64,000 nucleotides of DNA, taken from NCBI RefSeq assembly GCF_023055435.1, contig NW_025964334.1, positions 15,376,001 to 15,440,000 on the forward strand, read 5' to 3'. This document shows, one piece after another, positions 907 to 55,605 of this stretch. The translations under genes were made by a program, and so were the position numbers. This DNA is from Haliotis rufescens. Lineage: Eukaryota. Position 1 is the first letter of the stretch; every line of letters begins with the position of its first letter. The notes under the pieces were generated by a model. That model was not told the origin of the DNA. It saw only the letters and a program-made list of their open reading frames with translations, and did not search any database.

Positions 907-1144
907 CTTGTGAGGGTTCTAAGTAAGAACTAGTCACTACCAACCTATTCTGGTCATAAGAGGTAACTTATTGGATTGGGTTGTCAGGCTCGGTGACAGT
1001 GTTGATGGCATGTCAACATACCCTGACATCATTGATTGTTGTTCATAATATCAATCACTGAATTGTCTGGACCAGATTTTATTATATCCATGCAGCTGTG
1101 ATATATAGCTGGAAAATTGCTGAGTGCTGCATACAACGACAAAC
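907..1144 (+). mobile_element. Diverged copy of family B (SINE-like element without tRNA head)
   Basis: Colinear with the 1264-1531 copy: ggtcataagagg..., gtcaggctc, tcaatcactgaattgtctggaccaga, tatagctggaaaattgctgagtgc, caaac tail. Confidence 0.8.
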
Positions 1145-1175
1145 ACACAGTGAATAATCCCATACATCTTTCTCA

Positions 1176-1586
1176 GGAGCAGTGGGGTAGCCTTGTGGTT
1201 AAAGCATTCGTCGGTTGTGCCAAAGCCCGGTTTCAGTACCGGACATGGGTACAATGTGTGAAGACCCATGGAGATCTGGGGTAGAATAGGTCTTTAGCAA
1301 CCCATGCTTGCCATAAAAGGCAACTATGCTTGTCATAAGAGGCGACTAACAGGATTGGGTGGTCAGGCTTGCTGACTTGGTTGATACCTGTCATCGATCT
1401 CACTTGCGTGGATCGATGCTCATTATGTCAATCACTGGATTGTCTGGCCCGGACTCGATTATTTACAGACCGCCATCATATAGCGGGAATATTGATAAGT
1501 GCGGCGTTAAACAACAAACAAACAAACAAAAGCAATGTGTAAAGCTCATTTTACACTCCTACTGTGATATTGCAATAATATGCTAC
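1176..1586 (+). mobile_element. Diverged family A tRNA-SINE split by a family B insertion
   Basis: Head gggtagccttgtggttaaagc...catgggtacaatgtgtgaag (1176-1263) resumes after the B copy as caatgtgtaaagctcattt...gtgatattgc (1533-1586). Confidence 0.8.
1264..1531 (+). mobile_element. Family B SINE-like element, full length
   Basis: Starts acccatggagatctggggtagaatagg and ends ggcgttaaacaacaaac(aaac)n. TSD caatgtgt(g/a)aag at 1252-1263 and 1533-1544. Confidence 0.92.
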
Positions 1587-8133: not shown

Positions 8134-8241
8134 AAATAGTATGAGAATGAAGATCTACTGTACTTGTTGCTCTTTACAGTGTTGGAATTGTGTGTGATTT
8201 AATGTGCAGTAATGTCATGATCCATAGGATCATCTTCAGTA

Positions 8242-8550
8242 AACCCGTGAAGATCCGGGGTAGAATAGGTCTTCAGCAACCTATGCTTGCCGTGAAAATC
8301 CGAGGTAGAATAGGTCTTCAGCAACCCATGCTTGCCGTAAAAGGGGACTATACTTGTTGTAAGAGGCAACTACAGGGATCGGGTGGTCAGGCTAGTTTGG
8401 TTGATGCAAGTCATCGTATCCCAATTGCATGGATCGATGCTCATGATATCAATCACTGGATTGTCTGGTCCAGACTCGATTATTTACAGACTGCCGTCAT
8501 ATAGCTGGAATATTGCTTAGTGAGACGTTAAACAACAAACAATCAGTCAG
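8242..8550 (+). mobile_element. Family B element with tandemly duplicated 5' domain
   Basis: Perfect 12-bp TSD tcatcttcagta (8230-8241, 8551-8562). The ccgtgaa.atcc...caacc.atgcttg block occurs twice. Confidence 0.93.
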
Positions 8551-9210
8551 TCATCTTCAGTATGTCATGCTCAGTAATGTCATGCTTATAAACATCAACA
8601 GTATTGTCATGCAGTGACATGGAATGTGGTTGCGCTGTCATGTTCAGTAATCTCATGCTCTATAATGACATGTTCTGTGATGTTCAGTGCATCGACATGA
8701 ATTTTGTTTGTGTCCGCATTATTAAATCTCAGTTTGGCCATGTTCCTAAAGAGTCGTGTGGGATGTCATGTTCACTGCAATGACGCTGGCTAATCAGGTT
8801 AGTCAATTAACATCAGAGTGGCTATGATTTAAGACATGAAATAGAGGATATAATTTGTCAAAATATGTCTGGAGTTTTAGATGGGATGTTCTGAAGAGAA
8901 CAAGGTGATTATGGTAATTATTATTGAAAGTGTAAATACCAACATCAAAGCACGTTAGTCGTCAACACATGTGAAATGGACGTGCTGTCAGTCACGACAA
9001 TCACTCGATGACAGGTGGTTTACAAATCAATATCTGTGTTTGTACAAGACTTTACTACTTCCAACAGAAATAATGCACAATGACAAATAAAAAATTAGGA
9101 ATGTCAAAAAATGTAAAGTTTGATTTCCCATGTCAAACTTCAACAAACAATGTCCTCTTTGATGTTGATAAGGCAACAATCTCAATAATTATTCATAGAG
9201 GCATGATTGA

Positions 9211-19873: not shown

Positions 19874-20024
19874 TTGTATGCATTGCATTTCAAAGACATA
19901 ACTTACATATAAACATATATGTACTGAGATATCTTTCAATAAAATGTTCAATACCTGTTTCAGGCAATACATACAGGCAATTCATAGACAAAGTGCATGC
20001 CAGTAGTTCATAGTATTTAGTCTC

Positions 20025-23000
20025 CTGTAGGGATTCCAAGATAGATTGGTCCCCAGCCACTTGTGGGGATCCAAGATAGAATAGGTCCCCAGCAACCTGT
20101 GGGAATCAAAGATAGAATAGGTCCCCCGCAACCTGTGGGAATCCAAGATAGAATAGGTCCCCAGCAACCTATGGGAATCCAAGATAGAATAGGTCCCCAG
20201 CAACCTGTGGGAATCCAAGATAGAATAGGTCCCCAGCAACCTGTGCTGGTCATGCTGTGGGAATCCAAGATAGAATAGATCCCCAGCAACCTGTGGGAAT
20301 CCAAGATAGAATAGGTCCCCAGCAACCTGTGCTGGTCATGCTGTGGGAATCCAAGATAGAATAGATCCCCAGCAACCTGTGGGAATCCAAATTAGAATAG
20401 GTCCCCTGCAACCTGTGGGAATCCAAGATAGAATAGGTCCCCAGCAACCTGTGGGAATCCAAGATAGAATAGGTCCCCAGCAACCTGTGCTGGTCATGCT
20501 GTGGGAATCCAAGATAGAATAGATCCCCAGCAACCTATGCTGGTCGTGCCATGTGGACCCAAGATAGAATAGGTCCCCAGCAACCTATGCTGGTCGTGCC
20601 ATGTGGACCCAAGATAGAATAGGTCCCCAGCAACCTATGCTGGTCGTGCCATGTGGACCCAAGATAGAATAGGTCCCCAGCAACCTATGCTGGTCGTGCC
20701 ATGTGGACCCAAGATAGAATAGGTCCCCAGCAACCTGTGGGAATCCAAGATAGAATAGGTCCCCAGCAACCTATGCTGGTCGTGCCATGTGGACCCAAGA
20801 TAGAATAGGTCCCCAGCAACCTGTGGGAATCCAAGATAGAATAGGTCCCCAGCAACCTATGCTGGTCGTGCCATGTGGACCCAAGATAGAATAGGTCCCC
20901 AGCAACCTGTGGGAATCCAAGATAGAATAGGTCCCCAGCAACCTATGCTGGTCGTGCCATGTGGACCCAAGATAGAATAGGTCCCCAGCAACCTGTGGGA
21001 ATCCAAGATAGAATAGGTCCCCAGCAACCTATGCTGGTCGTGCCATGTGGACCCAAGATAGAATAGGTCCCCAGCAACCTGTGGGAATCCAAGATAGGAT
21101 AGGTCCCCAGCAACCTATGCTGGTCGTGCCATGTGGACCCAAGATAGAATAGGTCCCCAGCAACCTGTGGGAATCCAAGATAGAATAGGTCCCCAGCAAC
21201 CTATGCTGGTCGTGCCATGTGGACCCAAGATAGAATAGGTCCCCAGCAACCTGTGGGAATCCAAGATAGAATAGGTCCCCAGCGACCTATGCTGGTCGTG
21301 CCATGTGGACCCAAGATAGAATAGGTCCCCAGCAACCTGTGGGAATCCAAGATAGAATAGGTCCCCAGCAACCTATGCTGGTCGTGCCATGTGGACCCAA
21401 GATAGAATAGGTCCCCAGCAACCTGTGGGAATCCAAGATAGAATAGGTCCCCAGCAACCTATGCTGGTCGTGCCATGTGGACCCAAGATAGAATAGGTCC
21501 CCAGCAACCTGTGGGAATCCAAGATAGAATAGGTCCCCAGCAACCTATGCTGGTCGTGCCATGTGGACCCAAGATAGAATAGGTCCCCAGCAACCTATGC
21601 TGGTCGTGCCATGTGGACCCAAGATAGAATAGGTCCCCAGCAACCTATGCTGGTCGTGCCATGTGGACCCAAGATAGAATAGGTCCCCAGCAACCTATGC
21701 TGGTCGTGCTGTGTGGACCCAAGATAGAATAGGTCCCCAGCAACCTATGCTGGTCATGCCATGTGGACCCAAGATAGAATAGGTCCCCAGCAACCTATGC
21801 TGGTCGTGCCATGTGGACCCAAGATAGAATAGGTCCCCAGCAACCTATGCTGGTCGTGCCATGTGGACCCAAGATAGAATAGGTCCCCAGCAACCTATGC
21901 TGGTCGTGCCATGTGGACCCAAGATAGAATAGGTCCCCAGCAACCTATGCTGGTCGTGCCATGTGGACCCAAGATAGAATAGGTCCCCAGCAACCTATGC
22001 TGGTCGTGCCATGTGGACCCAAGATAGAATAGGTCCCCAGCAACCTATGCTGGTCATGCCATGTGGACCCAAGATAGAATAGGTCCCCAGCAACCTATGC
22101 TGGTCATGCCATGTGGACCCAAGATAGAATAGGTCCCCAGCAACCTATGCTGGTCGTGCCATGTGGACCCAAGATAGAATAGGTCCCCAGCAACCTATGC
22201 TGGTCGTGCCATGTGGACCCAAGATAGAATAGGTCCCCAGCAACCTATGCTGGTCGTGCTGTGGGAATCCAAGATAGAATAGGTCCCCAGCAACCTATGC
22301 TGGTCATGCCATGTGGACCCAAGATAGAATAGGTCCCCAGCAAGCTATGCTGGTCGTGCCATGTGGACCCAAGATAGAATAGGTCCCCAGCAACCTATGC
22401 TGGTCGTGCCATGTGGACCCAAGATAGAATAGGTCCCCAGCAACCTATGCTGGTCGTGCCATGTGGACCCAAGATAGAATAGGTCCCCAGCAACCTATGC
22501 TGGTCGTGCCATGTGGACCCAAGATAGAATAGGTCCCCAGCAACCTATGCTGGTCATGCCATGTGGACCCAAGATAGAATAGGTCCCCAGCAACCTATGC
22601 TGGTCATGCCATGTGGACCCAAGATAGAATAGGTCCCCAGCAACCTATGCTGGTCATGCCATGTGGACCCAAGATAGAATAGGTCCCGAGCAACCTATGC
22701 TGGTCATGCCATGTGGACCCAAGATAGAATAGGTCCCCAGCAACCTATGCTGGTCATGCCATGTGGACCCAAGATAGAATAGGTCCCCAGCAACCTATGC
22801 TGGTCGTGCCATGTGGACCCAAGATAGAATAGGTCCCCAGCAACCTATGCTGGTCGTGCCATGTGGACCCAAGATAGAATAGGTCCCCAGCAAGCTGTGC
22901 TGGTCATGCCATGTGGACCCAAGATAGCATAGGTCCCCACAACCTATGCTGGTCGTGCCATGTGGACCCAAGATAGAATAGGTCCCCCGCAACCTATGCT

Positions 23001-23445
23001 GGTCGTGCCATGTGGACCCAAGATAGAATAGGTCCCCAGCAACCTATGCTGGTCGTGCCATGTGGACCCAAGATAGAATAGGTCCCCAGCAAGCTGTGCT
23101 GGTCATGCCATGTGGACCCAAGATAGAATAGATCCCCAGCAACCTATGCTGGTCGTGCCATGTGGACCCAAGATAGAATAGGTCCCCAGCAAGCTGTGCT
23201 GGTCATGCCATGTGGACCCAAGATAGAATAGGTCCCCAGCAACCTGTGCTGGTCATGCCATGTGGACCCAAGATAGAATAGATCCCCAGCAACCTATGCT
23301 GGTCGTGCCATGTGGACCCAAGATAGAATAGGTCCCCAGCAAGCTGTGCTGGTCATGCCATGTGGACCCAAGATAGAATAGGTCCCCAGCAACCTATGCT
23401 GGTCGTGCTGTGGGGATTCTGGGGTATACTTGGTTCCCAGAAACC
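20025..23445 (+). repeat. 3.4-kb tandem array of 36-bp and 50-bp units derived from the 5' domain of a family B-related element
   Basis: Core tagaataggtccccagcaacctatgctggtcgt aligns with family B tagaataggtcttcagcaacccatgcttgtcgt. Confidence 0.95.
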
Positions 23446-23625
23446 TTTGCTGGTCACAAATAAGTCCGGTCATCCGGCTCTGTGTCATGGTTGGTAGCGT
23501 GGAAAGTCGTGCACAATATCAATCACTGGATTGTCTGGCCCTGACTTGATAATTTACAGACTGCTGTCATATAGCTGGAATATTGCTGTGTCCCTCCCTC
23601 CTTAAACAACAAACACACAAACAAA
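23408..23625 (+). mobile_element. Body and tail of the family B-related element hosting the array
   Basis: tcaatcactggattgtctggcc...tttacagactgctgtcatatagctggaatattgctg...ttaaacaacaaac is the family B 3' half. Confidence 0.85.
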
Positions 23626-23657
23626 ACACTTATGGTGCCTGTCTTTCCACATCACCA

Positions 23658-23823
23658 GGGGTGGTCGGGTAGCCTAGTGGTTAAAGCGTTCGCTCGTCAC
23701 GCCGAAGACCCGTGTTCGAGTCCCGACATGGGTACAATGTGTGAAGCCCATTTCTGGTGTCCCCCGCCGTGATATTGCTTGAATATTGCTAAAAGCGGCG
23801 TAAAACCATACTCACTCACTCAC
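23658..23823 (+). mobile_element. Family A tRNA-SINE (~170 bp), full length
   Basis: A box gtagcctagtggttaaagc, B box gttcgagtccc, (actc)n tail, perfect TSD tccacatcacca (23646-23657, 23824-23835). Confidence 0.95.
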
Positions 23824-24108
23824 TCCACATCACCAATCCTATGTATATTATACAGGAATACAATCAGCCCATCAAACACTGGCCATTGTCTTCATCATGG
23901 ACAGAGCTATTACGTCATCACTGCATTGTGTCATATGATACTGATCACAATAATGATGAAGCTGGATACAATACTTCTGTTCAACAAGTGTTTCATGTGT
24001 TGTATTTCATGGCCTTCAATAAACAATAATGTCATCCAGATTTACTAAACTTCTTTATGCCAAATAAATGTGCTTTATCAGGCAATATAACTGAGACGCT
24101 ATATGGCT

Positions 24109-24344
24109 AACCCATGAAGAACATGTCTACAGCAGCCCATGCTTGTCGTAAGGATGACTAATGTGATCGGATGATCGACCTCACGGAATAGGTTGATGCA
24201 TATCATCATATCCCAATTGCGTAGGTTGATGCTCATGATGTCAATCACTGGATTGTCTTGTCCAGACTCAATTATTTACAGACTGTCGTCATATAGCTGG
24301 AATATTGCTGGTTGTTGCATTAAACAACAAACAAACATACAAAC
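24109..24344 (+). mobile_element. Family B element
   Basis: TSD agacgctata(t/g)ggct (24094-24108, 24345-24359). Starts aacccatgaag and has only one gtcgtaag..gac module. Confidence 0.9.
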
Positions 24345-26127
24345 AGACGCTATAGGGCTGAAATAATGCTGATGCAACATTAAATTTTAACTCACTTATA
24401 AAATTAAAAATTCAGAAAAGAATAAAGAATAATGATCATCATTCCTTCCAAATTTACCTGATTTTACAATGACACGGTATGTGTATTTGTTTTATTGCTT
24501 TTTACAACAAGACTGAAATGAACGTGATATTGACATGCGTACATTTCACCTCTCCAGATGACAGCCTGTGTCTTGTGTATCTATAACGCCTCCAACAGTG
24601 ACATTCCAAGTCTCTCATCTGATAATAATTCCCTACTTTCTCCATGGAATTATTTGCACAAATTGTGTCCTTTTTATAGAGGGGTTAATACCGTCATACG
24701 TCTTCAAACCCCCAAACCCTAGCTCTCCCCTAATACATTCTGTGAAGAATGATTTATGTGCTTGAGCGACATATTACAGTTAATAGCGTGGAAAATTGAA
24801 TCTAGTTTGGAGACTGTATGTTGGAGGTATCTGTTATGAACCAGAACCTTTAATATGCTTATAAATCCCCATTGTTTTAGCACATGATATAGTAATAGGA
24901 TTATCCTACACTAAGCCCTTGCCTCTGAGCGTGGCTTGTCATTTCCACTCTCGTGTCTTCATGCTCGAAATTCCCGAGAGGTCAATGTTTCAGGAGTGAA
25001 AGAGTTAGCTCCCTTTGATCAGAAATGCTACTTGTGGAATTCTTTTTGTTCAGTTAATCGCATTGAAAGGTTAATTTTTATTGAATTTAGGTCTTGTTAC
25101 AAATTGAATTGTTGTAACAAAAAATCTTACTGATTTTATTTCTGTTGAGTCTTCGAACTGTTTTGCTTAGGTTGAAGAACAATATGGGATATTTTATGAA
25201 TGCTTCAATGGGTGTTTTGCCATAATGGTCTGAATGAGTCGTTTTATAAATGTTCTGTTTTCCACTCATTAATGAGCCTTAATGGCTAATGTTTCAAAGC
25301 AGGAAGGAATGAAAAATGGTCAAGTGCGTCTCTTGTAATGCTGAAAAAAATAGAAATTTCTTCTCTTAATCTAGTCGATATTCTGCAATGCGCAAATGAT
25401 ATACAGAACAGAGTGTGATGGGCTATTATTTCTCAATGTGTTTTCTCGCACAAAAATTTGCACATTTTTTAGTGATCAATTCAGATTTTTTAGTCTATGC
25501 TTGTCTAGCACTTGTCAGATACTTCAGCTCGAATAAATGGTGAAAAAGTTATCAATTGCAAACAGAGGTTGATATCAAGCATTTGCAGAAGGGATTTAAG
25601 CGTCTTTACGTCCATTTGGCTGTGTCAGACGGTGTGAACATTTTGTTGTCAATTGCACAATCATTACACTGTAAACAAACTGTCTGTCACTGGAGTGTTT
25701 GCGTAATCTGGCGGGAATGAGCGTCCATTTCGGTGGTTCATTTCGAGTGGAATGTTGAAATGAAAATAATGTAGTCTAGAGGTCAAAAATGGAATTTAAA
25801 ATATTTTAAAATATTTTGCAAACACACTTGGGAGCATGAATGATGGCTGACAGGACATGTATGTTACCTTAGTGCAATGTATCATGACAGACAAGTAGGA
25901 CGAGGGTGAAATTGATGACTTTGAGTGCTGGTTCATTTCATTGTACAAAATGCCCTTACACTGAGTCAAGTGAATTCTACTTCACAAGTCAGTCATTTTT
26001 TCACACAGAAGTCATGTGATCAGATAATGAACTTTAACTGTTGAAAGAATTACTTTGAATGCAAAAAAATTCTCTAATCGTGCCATGAACATTCACATAG
26101 TTAATGGAATTTGGCACATTGTAAATT

Positions 26128-33331: not shown

Positions 33332-33497
33332 GGGGGCGGTCGGGTAGCCTAGTGGTAAAGCATCCACTCGTCACGCCAAAGACCCGGGTTCGATTCCCCA
33401 CATTGGTACAATGTGTGAAGCCCATATCTGGTGTCCCCCACCGCGATATTGCTGGAATATTGCTAAAAGCATCGTAAAACCATACTCACTCATTCAC
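33332..33497 (+). mobile_element. Family A tRNA-SINE inserted at the tail of the family D copy
   Basis: A and B boxes (ggttcgattccc), family A body and tail; ttactgg occurs on both sides. Confidence 0.93.
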
Positions 33498-37436: not shown

Positions 37437-37565
37437 TGTTTGTTTGTTTGTTTGTTTAACGCTGCACTCAGCAATATTCTGGCTATTTGACAGAGTGATA
37501 CAAACTATCGAGTCTGGGCCAGACAATCCAGTGATTGAAATCATGAGCATCAATCTACCCAACTG
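37437..37565 (-). mobile_element. 3' half of a family B element
   Basis: (gttt)n, cagcaatatt, ccagacaatccagtgattg, catgagcatc are the reverse complement of the B tail. Confidence 0.85.
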
Positions 37566-38913
37566 ATGGAAATTTGGTCCATTAACAGTCATTATTATGA
37601 TATCATGTGGTTTATTTCCAAAGGAATCTATTTTTTTAATTCTAGTTTTGATTTTCTGTGCAAGATTTTTTTATGTTCACCCCTCGTATTATTTCTTTTG
37701 TGAAGAGTTGAAAAGCTTTTATGTATCTATAGAAATGACATGAGGATACTTGCCCAAACAAGCCATGTTCTTGTCAATTTCATGCTGATTACATTTTGTC
37801 ACCTAATTATCCATATCTTAATGTGTCATTATCTTTATGCATGAAAACATTTTCTAAACACCTTGACTGCGAACCAAGCTGTTATGACTCCACGACATGA
37901 TCTCTTCCGCACTGACCAGGCCCATTTCACAGTCCCCTTTATATCAGTAATGCGTATATCACATGAAATGGACGACTCACTTGTAAACAATGTGAATATA
38001 GTGTCGTTATTGCCTAGGTGGGTAGTAACAGTAGGTGGCAGTTGTTCATTTCACCATGTATATATCACACTGGTGTACATTTCACTGTGGCGACAGTGTT
38101 GTGGATTTCAGGTGTGGTGCGGGTGCGGGTCTACAAGTGTACCAGTTCATGTCATTACATACCATAATTGACAGTGATGAAGAACCTATTTCACCCACTC
38201 GATGACAGTTTATGAAACAAACTGGTCATTGGGTGAATGGTGTGTTTATTTAATTGGGTTTTTGAGGCCCATTTCGGCAGGAAGTCACGATGAATGAAAT
38301 GGATATCCCTGTTGTATTTCGCCTGTGTCCTTTTGTCCATCATGTCTTGGGTGCAGCGCATGTCCCTAGCTACAACCCACTGTGAAATATACATCTGGTG
38401 AATCTCGCCAATATCGCAATTTCAATATAAACAGCTGTTCAAAACTTTTCCAACCTGGTAGAAATCTATAGCAGTGTGTGAGCAGACATATTCCACAAGC
38501 TCTTGTGAGAAAATGGAGTCAATTTCACTTGTGGTACATACCTACCAGTATACGATCAATTCTAAAGGCAAGCTATTATTGGTAGCATCAATGAATATAT
38601 CCATTATGCATATAGGAATAAAGTTGGTGTGTTAAAGGCCTTTCATCCTTCTTGTCACAATGGCTTGGGATGAAAGAATAACTAAGTGTAAAATTTTGAA
38701 AACAAGTCATTAGGATTTATTGTCAACCTTTCAGAATGACCTTGTGGCTGTTTTGTTTAGGTTTGATTTCTTTATAATTCTGCCCATAGTCCTGCATTCA
38801 ATGTGTCCAATGATGGGAAATTAACAACTCTTTTGTGAGGCCAATGAGTCATATTTGAATCAAATCCCTGTACATTTCTGAAACTGACGATGGTATGTAT
38901 GTTACATAGATCA

Positions 38914-39066
38914 GGGGGCGGTCGGGTAGCCTGGTGGTTAGCTCGTCACGCCGAAGACCCGGGTTCGATTCCCAACATGGGTACAATGTGTGAAGCCCAT
39001 TTTTGATGTCCCCTGCCATGATATTGCTGGAATATTGCTAAAAGCGGCGTAAAACCATACTCACTC
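38914..39066 (+). mobile_element. Family A tRNA-SINE
   Basis: Family A consensus; flanked by acatagatc at 38904-38912 and 39067-39075. Confidence 0.95.
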
Positions 39067-39077
39067 ACATAGATCGG

Positions 39078-39344
39078 GACCTGTGAAGGTCTGGGGTAGA
39101 ATAGGTCTTCAGCAACCCATGCTTGCCGTAAAATGCAACTATGCTTGTCGTAAGAGGCAACTAACAGGATCGGGTGGTCAGGCTTGCTGACTTGGTTGAT
39201 GCATGTCATCGTGTCCCAATTGCGCAGATCGATGCTCATGATGTCAATCACTGGATTGTCTGATCCAGACTCGATTATTTACAGACCACCGTCATACAGC
39301 TGGAAAATTGCTGAGTGTGGCATTAAACAACAAACATCCAAACA
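39078..39344 (+). mobile_element. Family B element, full length
   Basis: Starts acctgtgaaggtctggggtagaatagg; TSD acatagatcgg (39067-39077, 39345-39355). Confidence 0.95.
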
Positions 39345-42300
39345 ACATAGATCGGATGTCGTATATGGAATATTGTAAGAGGTTTCTGTTCGACTGCCAG
39401 CCATCGAGAGACACAGCCTCAGAATTTACGTCCCAGAGTCAACTGTAATAATTCATTTAAATGATAAAACTCGAGTTAAAACAAACTCATTGCAGTTTTG
39501 TTCAAAGCAAATCCAACATTATTAGATGTTATGTTAGCAAAGAGATGTATTGCACCCTGATTTACTATTTTGATGTTGACAGTCGATTTCTTGAAATTGT
39601 CTTTATTTGTCAGATTGAGTCCAAAGGGCTGCTGTTATGCTTGGGAGGTAATCCTTTGTCAAACATAAAGGTTGTATATAGCATTTATACAACGTAATGT
39701 GCAAAGATATTTGATAGAAATCAATATCAATTTCGGATCGTCAGTTTCAAAATGGCGTCAATTTCAGTACCAGATATACAGGGGTGCTCCAAGTAAATGA
39801 CAATTTCTCGGTTGTGTGTAAGTTTCATGTAGCTAAGTGGCGTTAGGCATAAAATATACTCATCAATTTCAAGGCTCGTCAGTTTGGGCATGCGTCTATA
39901 CATCAGCACTCAATACAGGTATGCCAAGGGAAGTGAGCAGGACGCACAGAGATGAGGCTATCTCGTTAAAGGCAGGTTTCAGACAGACTGGCTCCTTGGA
40001 GAAGTCACAGATTGCCGTGTACATTGCTAGTCACGTAACACTCCTTTCTTATCGCCATGCTTATTGCAGTTAGCCTCTGTGGTCCTAGCTGTGTAAACTG
40101 CTGTAGACAACACTTGGATCACTTCAAGGGACGTCAGTCATGCACAAATCAACTTCTTGTCTTTAATCTACAACAAAGGCTTTAATTTCATTTAAGTATG
40201 TTTCAATGAAAATTCAGTTTGTGTTGATAATGAATGTTTTAAAGATTAATTTTTCTTAAATTTAAGATTGAGAAAAATCTTTTTTTATTTTTTATAAAAA
40301 AAAATAATCTACTACACTGACTTTAATTTAATTTAAATATGGTTTCATGAAATTTCAGTTTGTGTTGATTACAGATGTTTTGAAATTTGATTTTAGATAA
40401 AGATTCCAGATTTAGGAAAATCTTATTGTTTCTTTCATTTGGTTAAGGTGACACATGTTTTAAACTTTGTTACATGAGGATTGAAATGAGAGCTATTTTT
40501 AAAATTTAAGAGACCTCATATTTGAGTTTTCAGTATTTAGAGTTAGAAATCTGGTAATCTTTTTCTTTGTGTATTTCACAAAGAATTCGACTGCAGTCAT
40601 TGTGTCGGCTAAAGACTGAAATATTTGACACCGAATCCTGCTTTTTCTTTCCCCTTTTTTCCCCGTTTCCTGAATTTAAAAAAAGGGTTTTATTTCAACT
40701 TCTGTTTCTTTTCATTATGGAAACAAAGGGATTTCAGTGATGTCAGAGTGAGGTGCTGGACGACGTCAACTATCACATGACAAAGAAAGTTCCCAGCACC
40801 AGTTCCCTTGCATTATTCTTTGAATTAGGAGAAAATCTCTAATTTCATTGTCTGCAAGCCTAAAATCCAAGTTCCTGGTTCCAAATTTACCGTAATCCTG
40901 ATTAGACAGAGTAGCGAAGAAGTCCCTAGGCCCACACAGAGGTGTGTCTATCATAGAGCTGTCACAAATGTCACTCACTTTGTGTAATTAACATGAAAAA
41001 GATGTGAAATCAACGACTTAATGCAAAACTAGGTCCTCGACGTTCCTTTCACTGGAGTTGCGTTTGAAATTGGAATTGCATATTTTGAAGTTGAACATTT
41101 TCCTAAATTAGCTGGAGAAGAATGATTATGTAAGATTTTTAAATAACTTTGCATGTTGGTTGACAATGACCAATAATTGATTTGTAAAGAGACAATAACA
41201 AATTTGGTGGAGTTGAAATTAAGGGGTTTATAATGTAATTTACATGGGGCCAGAGCCCTTGTTTCTACTAGCACACAGACTACACCAAAGAGCAGGGATT
41301 GATGGGCTTTTGAATTTCATTACAGCCGAAGATTCAGGTCTGCTGGCTGTGTCAGTTTTAATAGTCCGAGCACTTCATAATTAGCCACTTTTAATTAAAT
41401 TGTTCATTGCATCACAAAGCACTTTGGCCCCAGTGAAAGTTGCAACCTTTCTGGAGGTAAAAGCATGTCAATTTCACTCACGCTTCGCTCCCCCTTTGAA
41501 CTCAGGGTTGAAACATACAATTACTCATGTCAAGCATCAACTTGAAATTGAACACCTGTACATTTCACCTGAAATTAACGACTGGTCATTGGGGAAGTAA
41601 ATACAGGAATTTTGTCGCAAACCTTCTCCCTTATAGGGCATGTAATTATAGAAGTACATCGTAAATTACACCTTAAACTGCCCCCTGTATTTATTTTAAC
41701 TCCGGGGGACAGTAAAATTGAGACTGAAGGTCTTCGGTTAAAATCCCTTCTTCTCATCAATTCACTAGATAATAGACAAGCGGAATCTGCAAGTGATCGG
41801 CAATGCCTGCAAGAGACAGATCGGGCTTGTCTACTGCATGTCCATTTCGCTCTTCATTTTGTAGATTGCAGTCTGTCCGCTCCATTCATTACATCCTTGA
41901 TACCCCCGGGGCCTTTAATTACTAGACACAAGACTGATTACATAACTGTGAAAATTGTAGGTTTACTTAAATACTTTGAACTGTCAAAGGTCAACCAATG
42001 ATGCCTCATTAATTAAGTTGGAAAGAAAGTAAATCCATAAAAATTATAAGAGGTTCTTCCAATAAACTCCCTGCTTTTCAGAATTTCAGTGGGCGACGTG
42101 TCTTGTGGTTCCTTTGATAAGAACATCAATGGGGGACAAGATGAAGATAAATACCTCAGTAAAGTAGATGTTATTTGGCCAAAGAAGCAGTTTTGCGTTT
42201 TCAAGATCAAAGATTTCAAGATACACTGAAAACTAAATTTGCCATTTTTTCATGTTTAAATGGTCTACTTGAAGGTGCCATAGCCACAAACGAATTAAAA

Positions 42301-51607: not shown

Positions 51608-51786
51608 CAGGGTGGTCGGGTAGCCTAGTGGTTAAAGCGTTGGCTCGTCACGCCGAAGACCCGGGTTCGATTCCCAACATGGGTACAATATGTGAAGCCC
51701 ATTTCTGGTGTCCCCCGCCGTGATATTGCTGGAATATTGCTAAAAGCGGCATAAAACCTCACTCACTCACTCACTCACTCACTCAC
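51608..51786 (+). mobile_element. Family A tRNA-SINE, young copy
   Basis: CpGs retained; TSD tctaaaagcagt (51596-51607, 51787-51798). Confidence 0.96.
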
Positions 51787-55225: not shown

Positions 55226-55433
55226 TTTTGTTTGTTTGTTTGTTGTTTAACCCTGCACTCTGCAATATTCCAGCTATATGATGGTGGTCTGTAAATAATC
55301 GAGTCTGGACCAGACAATCCAGTGATTAACATCATGAGCATCGATCCACGCAATTGGGATACGATGACATGCATCAACCAAGTCAGCAAGCCTGACCACC
55401 CGATCCCATTAGTTGCCTCTTACGACAAGCATA
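55226..55433 (-). mobile_element. 5'-truncated family B element
   Basis: Reverse complement of B from tgcttgtcgtaagaggcaactaa to the (aaac)n tail. Confidence 0.92.
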
Positions 55434-55605
55434 TTTGCCTGCAAATAGAGTACATTTATATGGCACAGAGACAAGAACATGGCCAACAGTTATACAGTAC
55501 CTAAATGCATGAAAACATGATGAGAATGAAAATAACAGGGACAAAACTCTTTCAATACATAAAATTACACAGATTCTAACATTATTTGCAATGTTCTCTG
55601 GCAAG

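Follow-up and report, generated by a model that had tools for sequence, protein, structure and literature searches.

How LINEs without a promoter and SINEs without a tRNA head come by a precise 5' end is an open question. It is raised here by a short element which starts at position 39078 of a 64,000-nt stretch of Haliotis rufescens DNA (the window). A sequence-only reading of the window had assigned this element to a SINE-like family, B, with a sharply defined 5' end and a structured, ribozyme-like 5' domain. The head of this SINE, about 70–95 nt long, is common to intact LINEs of the same genome and to the 3' UTRs of RNA viruses.

Family B copies and their 5' ends

Family B is a SINE of about 250 bp which carries no tRNA head, is flanked by TSDs and is represented by at least 10,222 heads genome-wide, counted as exact matches to a 25-nt head pattern. 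Its copies in the window are listed in Table 1. The four TSD-bounded copies of the sequence-only reading could all be confirmed, and the diverged one at 907 is a decayed copy. Two features had been overlooked. In a young subfamily the hairpin unit of the head is tandemly duplicated (about 22–23 nt), and the copy at 24109 has lost the middle of its stem domain: its pseudoknot domain is partly deleted and one hairpin unit only is present. The proposed hairpin gtcg-taagagg-cgac belongs to a domain that is conserved across families, but it is intact in no window copy. The tRNA head upstream of the copy at 1263 belongs to another SINE family, A, because the TSD shows that B was inserted into A. B copies often lie within or adjoining A copies, and the 3' tail of family A is common to family B and to LINEs; the LINE-related tail of the 39078 copy is likewise related to it. 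The satellite at 20024 ends in a family-B-like body followed by a (CAAA)n tail. Beyond this satellite, head duplications were seen at 8242 and elsewhere in the genome.

Table 1. Features of the family B copies in the window, related repeats, and the motif in a DNA virus contig. Stems, loops and domains are those of the predicted fold.
Feature	Position	Strand	Remarks
Family B copy, putatively LP-type SINE	39078..39344	+	249-bp head, body and tail, then (CAAA)n-like repeat
TSD of the 39078 copy	39067..39077 (5') and 39345-39355 (second copy)	+	11/11 match
Pseudoknot stem S1, 5' strand	39078..39083	+	from the first base of the element; predicted partner 39092-39097
Loop L1	39084..39084	+	single U; nucleotide 7 in all four start-mapped families
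Stem S2, 5' strand	39085..39091	+	7 bp; partner 39104-39110; covaries; stem of the sequence-only reading
Stem S1, 3' strand	39092..39097	+	GGG-rich
Loop L3	39098..39103	+	AGAAUA, near-invariant
Stem S2, 3' strand	39104..39110	+	
Second domain of the 39078 copy	39116..39169	+	outer stem P3 around hairpin units and UAA
Outer stem P3 in the 39078 copy	39116-39120 with about 39164-39169		decayed here; covaries across families
Tandem GUCG-UANNAGG-CGAC hairpin units of the 39078 copy	39125-39139, 39147-39161		CpG decay in both
LINE-related 3' tail of the 39078 copy	39290..39326	+	28/40 aligned columns identical to tail of intact LINE L268
Family B copy inside tRNA-headed family A SINE	1263..1532	+	TSD 1252-1263 / 1533-1544, 11/12
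Family B copy, first ~48 nt of head tandemly duplicated	8242..8550	+	TSD 8230-8241 / 8551-8562, 12/12
Family B copy	24109..24344	+	TSD 24094-24108 / 24345-24359, 14/15
Old diverged family B copy	907..1150	+	73% identity over body; CM E=0.011; no TSD established
Family B copy, 5'-truncated	55226..55440	-	without pseudoknot domain
Family B 3' fragment	37437..37566	-	
Related older copy, head amplified to 3.4-kb satellite	20024..23626	+	36/50/86-bp units, 71 head units
Family A SINEs (tRNA-headed, (ACTC)n tail)	1176-1600, 23658-23823, 33333-33497, 38905-39068, 51614-51702		
Motif in 212-kb DNA virus contig L230	L230:3000-3071		solitary, between genes in an AT-rich gap; both neighbours have the same sense

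For the position of the 5' end 58 genome copies were examined, five of which had no tail; the remaining 53 with a recognisable tail were used. TSDs were found in 32 of these 53; in the shifted control the number was 4 of 53. Among the 32 copies the TSD abuts the first base, G1, exactly in 18 and within one nucleotide in 26, which confirms the precise start; as the copies had been picked by similarity to the full element or to the head, this result shows that nothing lies upstream and has no bearing on how rare 5' truncation is. An Rfam search of the window gave no tRNA or 5S match at family B, and with the TSDs abutting G1 the claim that no such head lies upstream held. The absence of Pol III boxes was borne out: the four window copies scanned contain no B box, and for the A box there are only look-alikes with one mismatch, in three of them. 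The same scan detected both boxes in the family A copy at 38905. In miRNA-seq data (three runs under the label of a related species) 51 reads fell on the SINE, without accumulating at +1, and 135 on the LINE head, nearly all of them antisense and 85 sharing one start; both sets are uninformative for sense 5' ends. These 85 antisense reads, of about 30 nt and thus piRNA-like in size, lie over the pseudoknot of the LINE head (L272:6892-6921) and stem from one run.

By its described features, rather than by alignment to the Hdi_LP consensus, family B matches the LP ('LINE promoter') type of SINE already published in 2016 (PMC4758252). In the accessible part of that paper, Matetovici et al. describe the LP-SINEs Hdi_LP and Hmi_LP of Haliotis, 255 bp long, the first ~70 bp of which match the 5' ends of the elements Nimb-17_LMi, I-3_DR and RTE-9_CPB; the ~70-bp head occurs in scallop MESC SINEs as well (PMC4758252). 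LP-SINEs and family B are alike in the tRNA-less head, the TSDs, the terminal short repeats, here (CAAA)n tails, and a length of about 255 bp (PMC4758252). The published Hdi_LP has an AATATA hexamer; the window copies have AATATT or AAAATT near the tail. Judged by eye, the 'Nimb-17 homology' block of the scallop elements (Fig. S2 of PMC4758252) has the same core and the same order of parts as the family B head. As in LP-SINEs, the first ~70 bp are LINE-derived, since the same motif heads 19 of 20 APE-RT-RNase H LINEs fetched from this genome. The SINE type and its LINE-derived head have been known since 2016. Matetovici et al. suggested the head as a promoter and mentioned the parallel to the promoter/ribozyme of L1Tc, without a test; unlike the present analysis, the paper, as far as accessible, describes neither an RNA structure nor an occurrence in viruses nor an HDV-headed sister LINE (PMC4758252). 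A description of these three was not found in our literature search either, whose scope lay outside Repbase, Dfam, subscription papers and bioRxiv supplements. An identity with the MetaSINE/MESC superfamily was considered and rejected. These too are mollusc SINEs, with a deeply conserved domain of ~66 bp, but according to the accessible account they have a tRNA-derived promoter first and the domain in a central position (PMC4824008), whereas family B has no tRNA head.

A predicted pseudoknot at the 5' end

From homologues in this genome, JGI metagenomes (at least 120 loci), GTDB contigs (three) and IMG/VR a model of the head was derived. It predicts that the head begins, at its extreme 5' end, with an H-type pseudoknot, which a hairpin domain follows. 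Stem S1 comprises 4–6 bp, loop L1 one base and S2 7 bp, and AGAAUA lies in loop L3. Pairing was evaluated over 21 family representatives, which are related and not independent of each other. S2 forms 6.38 of 7 pairs; with the partners swapped the figure is 4.04, and 0 of 20000 permutations did as well. For S1 the values are 4.33 of 5 and 3.78 (2 of 20000); as S1 is mostly invariant, there are few changes (in L062, L063 and L320) behind its covariation. P3, scored in a separate run in which the row L136 is out of register, forms 4.33 of 5 pairs compared to 2.20 (0 of 20000). The registers of S1 and S2 had been optimised by a descriptor, with which 20 of 21 real but also 39 of 210 shuffled sequences reach 10 of 11 pairs. 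L136 was left out of the 21-row test of S1 and S2, the register of L233 is uncertain in both runs, and L104, L165 and L327 lie outside the 21-row tests. In an independent count over 15 non-viral rows, 77% of the cells are paired and 23 changes affect both sides, each value being reached by 0 of 500 shuffles, whereas slid controls in this count gave 38–52% paired cells. P3 is weak in three of five viral examples.

Across families, covariation supports S1, S2 and P3. The stem tgaagatc/ggtcttca, S2 in the model, is real and covaries. Two of the four pairings proposed earlier are wrong. A pseudoknot between the loop gggt and the downstream accc forms only 2.52 of 5 pairs over the 21 families, with 1940 of 20000 permutations as good, and a closing helix acccg/cgggt only 1.76 of 5 (2737 of 20000). 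In the revised model, the GGG strand of the loop pairs with the element's own 5' end, as S1, and the ACCC strand belongs to the outer stem P3 around the GUCG/CGAC hairpin. The invariance of this inner hairpin is partly built in by the search pattern; when its stem was freed, no new true match appeared in the viral contigs.

In four families whose start could be mapped, the uridine of L1 is nucleotide 7 although the first base differs (G, T, A and G), and the invariant AGAAU box lies at +21, +30, +24 and +37. Single window copies, which are decayed, fold no better than shuffled sequences (z 0.31, -0.82 and 0.08), while the loci L320, L065 and L281 out-fold them with z of about -2.5; both results refer to nested folding only. 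Neither in the window nor in the viral loci did Rfam return a match to the head. The earlier statement that the fold does not map cleanly onto known ribozymes stood, as a fit by eye to the HDV, twister, pistol, hammerhead and hairpin cores failed. An HDV descriptor found no match in the window and none upstream of 198 other heads, and the SINE head has neither the nested double pseudoknot P1/P2/P3/P1.1 nor the catalytic C in J4/2 of HDV-like ribozymes. The expectation that a conserved, structured RNA domain is present in other invertebrate repeats was correct.

The motif in LINEs, viruses and metagenomes

The LINEs were retrieved with the APE domain of the motif-headed LINE L233. All 20 fetched elements have a 3' tail related to the tails of SINEs A and B, and the retrieved LINEs are intact, with APE, RT and RNase H; in the 19 mentioned above the motif is located in the 5' UTR. 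Hence, the head is derived from a LINE 5' end, as had been supposed. No LINE with the (CAAA)n ending of the SINE was found, as all 20 end in (ACTC)n.

Two sister families, M and H, can be distinguished, with ORF2 78% identical. Family M starts at the motif: there is a T at -3 in 26 of 29 copies, some rows being duplicates, and random sequence beyond; in L281 a 10-bp TSD abuts the motif. In family H the start lies 57 nt upstream of the motif and coincides, in 30 of the 30 copies sampled, with G1 of an HDV-like module. The full descriptor of this module (nested double pseudoknot, L3 UCCUCGY, GG, CUAA) fits 27 of the 30 copies, and against Rfam RF02682 it reaches E=0.002, under the gathering score. 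Judged from these models we consider it a genuine predicted HDV-like ribozyme. It is very compact, with 57 nt and P4 almost absent. The family itself (L264-L283, L284-L313; for instance L272:6928-6984, minus strand) is abundant and intact, with an ORF2 of ~1230 aa and 827 exact head matches, and the literature search found no paper joining Nimb elements and ribozymes. About half of all copies starting at the motif would show non-T at both upstream test positions. This random-flank signature was seen in none of 827 family H heads, where a control pattern found 820. At the same time, the motif is kept at 94% identity in family H, compared to 76% for ORF2. Its retention without a role in the start may point to an additional function, for instance in translation or in the binding of a protein, or else to recent swapping of 5' UTRs.

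Outside of animals the motif was searched for with a CM trained only on animal repeats; since the viral loci had been preselected for the core, their scores are inflated, but each of them also supplies the upstream stems. The CM finds the motif in L065, L061 (twice), L063 and L062 with E from 4e-14 to 3e-8, in a DNA virus, L230, with which the set spans 4e-14 to 2e-4, and also in L320 and L327 (twice). Six distinct RNA-virus contigs (L061, L062, L063, L065, L320, L327) thus have it in the 3' UTR. In all six its orientation is sense and it follows the last long ORF, with no more than about 125 nt left to the end of the contig; in two, L061 and L327, it is present in tandem. RdRP or capsid Pfam matches were obtained for five of the six: RdRP_3 in L063, L065 and L327, RdRP_4 in L320 and a Peptidase_A21 capsid in L062. 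The ORF of L061 has no Pfam match and is polymerase-like only by eye. In the DNA virus the motif has neither SINE body nor tail; its place is one gene downstream of the gene for an NAD-dependent DNA ligase, and about 145 nt separate it from the ATG of a long ORF which is kinase-like by eye and has no Pfam match.

Looser searches added little. Among 15 new loci of the viral search only L320 and L327 are clear; L322 and L328, one sequence found twice, score 25 bits and the rest below 17. Loosened viral patterns gave mostly chance matches, as seven of ten were one phage sequence and, in another set, three of seven lacked this fold. Three phage loci fitting looser patterns were not found by the CM, and the phage database yielded only a 22-nt chance match. 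A GTDB scan gave three matches, all animal-repeat-like and in symbiont assemblies, which probably represent host DNA. These bacterial symbiont assemblies (L233, that is NZ_JRAA01000003.1, L231 and L232) contain the 5' half of a LINE, with head, ORF1 and APE domain, and SINE-like copies. In one metagenome family (L122, L125, L131, L134, L162, L171, L198) the motif is followed directly, by eye, by a tRNA-like sequence with A and B boxes, an arrangement resembling scallop MESC; ARAGORN predicted no tRNA gene behind the motif in six of six loci of this family. A large metagenome family (L100, L111, L118, L144 and related loci) lacks the 5' half of the module with the pseudoknot; the part that is kept, AGAAUA box plus hairpin domain, is fused behind (AAGT)n-containing sequence.

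Explanations for the fixed start

The explanation which we favour, at somewhat less than an even chance, is that the head is a candidate exonuclease-resistant RNA (xrRNA) of an undescribed class and sets the first base of the element. A SINE copy, for which the lack of Pol III boxes is an observation, would be transcribed by read-through from a host promoter. Decay of the Xrn1/Xrn2 type would then trim this RNA and come to a halt on reaching the pseudoknot, with six nucleotides left ahead of the L1 uridine, in keeping with the fixed start observed in four families. The protected RNA would be reverse-transcribed by an APE-RT-RNase H LINE, the presumed partner, via the common 3' tail to give TSD-flanked copies; the similarity of the tails and the TSDs themselves were found directly. 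In family H, the HDV-like module would cleave to give an RNA with a 5'-OH end. Such ends are not attacked by Xrn enzymes, and the longer start would be kept, as is observed. Because the 5'-OH product of the ribozyme is not an Xrn substrate, an exonuclease barrier predicts the start patterns of both M and H. In viruses, a short RNA from the 3' end would be shielded by the same fold.

By analogy, the position in viral 3' UTRs and the tandem copies fit such a barrier. Known xrRNAs are located in the 3' UTRs of viruses, frequently as tandem copies (PMC8374639), those of plant viruses are described as halting Xrn1 'precisely at the base of P1' (PMC12397905), and work on R2 posits that 5' folds also bar 5'-3' exonucleases (PMC11331408). 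As far as the accessible accounts go, the flavivirus class 1/2, plant tombus/solemovirus and coremin xrRNAs share with the head a small pseudoknotted fold (PMC12397905, PMC8374639, PMC10520033), the location in 3' UTRs of unrelated virus families, tandem copies and a 5' boundary at the base of the first stem. [quoted passage not shown] The head, the resistance of which is a prediction, differs from each class in sequence and secondary structure: class 1/2 is described as a three-way junction with two pseudoknots (PMC8374639), whereas S2 of the head encloses no hairpins, and coremin as a 5'-proximal 4-bp hairpin with a YGAD/YGNNAD loop and a conserved spacer of 8–10 nt (PMC10520033), whereas in the head the hairpin is not near the 5' end and its loop, UANNAGG, comprises 7 nt. 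Our literature search gave no xrRNA in a retroposon. Several points speak against the barrier. As modelled, the fold fits no described xrRNA class and no Rfam family, a plain H-type pseudoknot need not stop Xrn1, the motif is strongly retained in family H, which suggests a different or an additional role, and the origin of the RNA 3' end is left unexplained. The head is also reminiscent of s2m, which is known as a short, highly conserved motif distributed patchily over the 3' UTRs of unrelated RNA viruses, with an unsettled function; s2m is unrelated in sequence and fold, and the sources consulted in part do not describe it as the head of a retroposon.

The sequence-only reading had proposed a self-processing RNA or an internal promoter in a LINE 5' UTR. 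Both are weakened by family H, as the HDV module kept there speaks against a cut, or a start of transcription, at the motif's first base. We think it unlikely that the head belongs to a new ribozyme class with self-cleavage, or signals to a host endonuclease, with a cut just 5' of S1 that frees the element from read-through RNA. Such a cut would strip off the HDV module, yet this is present in every sampled copy of family H, and the signature of motif-start copies is absent from its heads, even if the 3' strand of the HDV module might inhibit the motif there. In viruses it would sever the 3' end of the genome, and neither the HDV descriptor, in the window or upstream of the other heads, nor the Rfam ribozyme models gave a match. 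A ribozyme would nevertheless be in line with the near-invariant loops, which are like a catalytic core, with the motif in family M standing exactly where family H carries the HDV-like ribozyme, and with the start at the base of the first stem. The latter is known from the HDV-like ribozymes of R2 and L1Tc/NARTc, similar structured 5' modules fixing the start of a non-LTR element (PMC3383444, PMC11331408), although in family H this module exists separately, upstream of the motif. Ribozymes are known from UTRs of RNA viruses as well, some as tandem pairs, but those described, in the accessible part of the report, are mostly in 5' UTRs or before ORFs (PMC13725137).

A recruiting function, by which uncapped RNA acquires ribosomes, translation factors or some other host protein through the fold and the 5' end is a by-product of the bound protein, is slightly more doubtful still. 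It would be a cap-independent enhancer for viruses and LINEs and would bring, with the same low probability, the SINE RNA to nascent reverse transcriptase. The motif is highly identical right behind the HDV-like ribozyme of family H, where the RNA would be uncapped, it precedes an ATG in the DNA virus, and in tombus/noda-like contigs it comes soon after the last stop codon. This is where 3' translation enhancers are typical in such viruses. Taken alone, recruitment does not explain a start fixed to ±1 nt independently of the flank in non-coding SINEs, and Rfam has no match to known enhancers. Still less probable is an internal RNA polymerase II promoter which starts at its own first base, as suggested by Matetovici et al. 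(2016). It would account for the very 5' position in SINEs and some LINEs (PMC4758252); many of the invariant bases could be protein-binding sites in DNA, and one sequence can be promoter and RNA structure alike, as reported for L1Tc Pr77 (PMC3383444). But the stems covary, the distance from +1 to AGAAU ranges from 21 to 37 nt, the +1 base varies too, and the copies of family H do not start at the motif. The location in 3' UTRs of RNA viruses, which have no DNA stage, weakens the promoter further. Explanations other than these four we hold to be very improbable.

Should the head indeed be an exonuclease barrier, retroposon 5' ends may be reached by a third route beside internal promoters and ribozymes. 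It is possible, though we would not yet call it probable, that a new xrRNA class lets decay trim read-through transcripts to unit length, and that the same ~70-nt module has moved among LINEs, SINEs, a large DNA virus and several lineages of RNA viruses and, in sister LINEs, can be exchanged for an HDV-like ribozyme. The motif is a 70-nt RNA, and one cheap assay each can decide on barrier, ribozyme, translation element and promoter. If the head cleaves, it would represent a new ribozyme class. As an xrRNA, it would stand for a new class of fold and, within the literature searched, be the first used by retroposons of a host genome, and a functional RNA module would have been exchanged between animal transposons and viruses.
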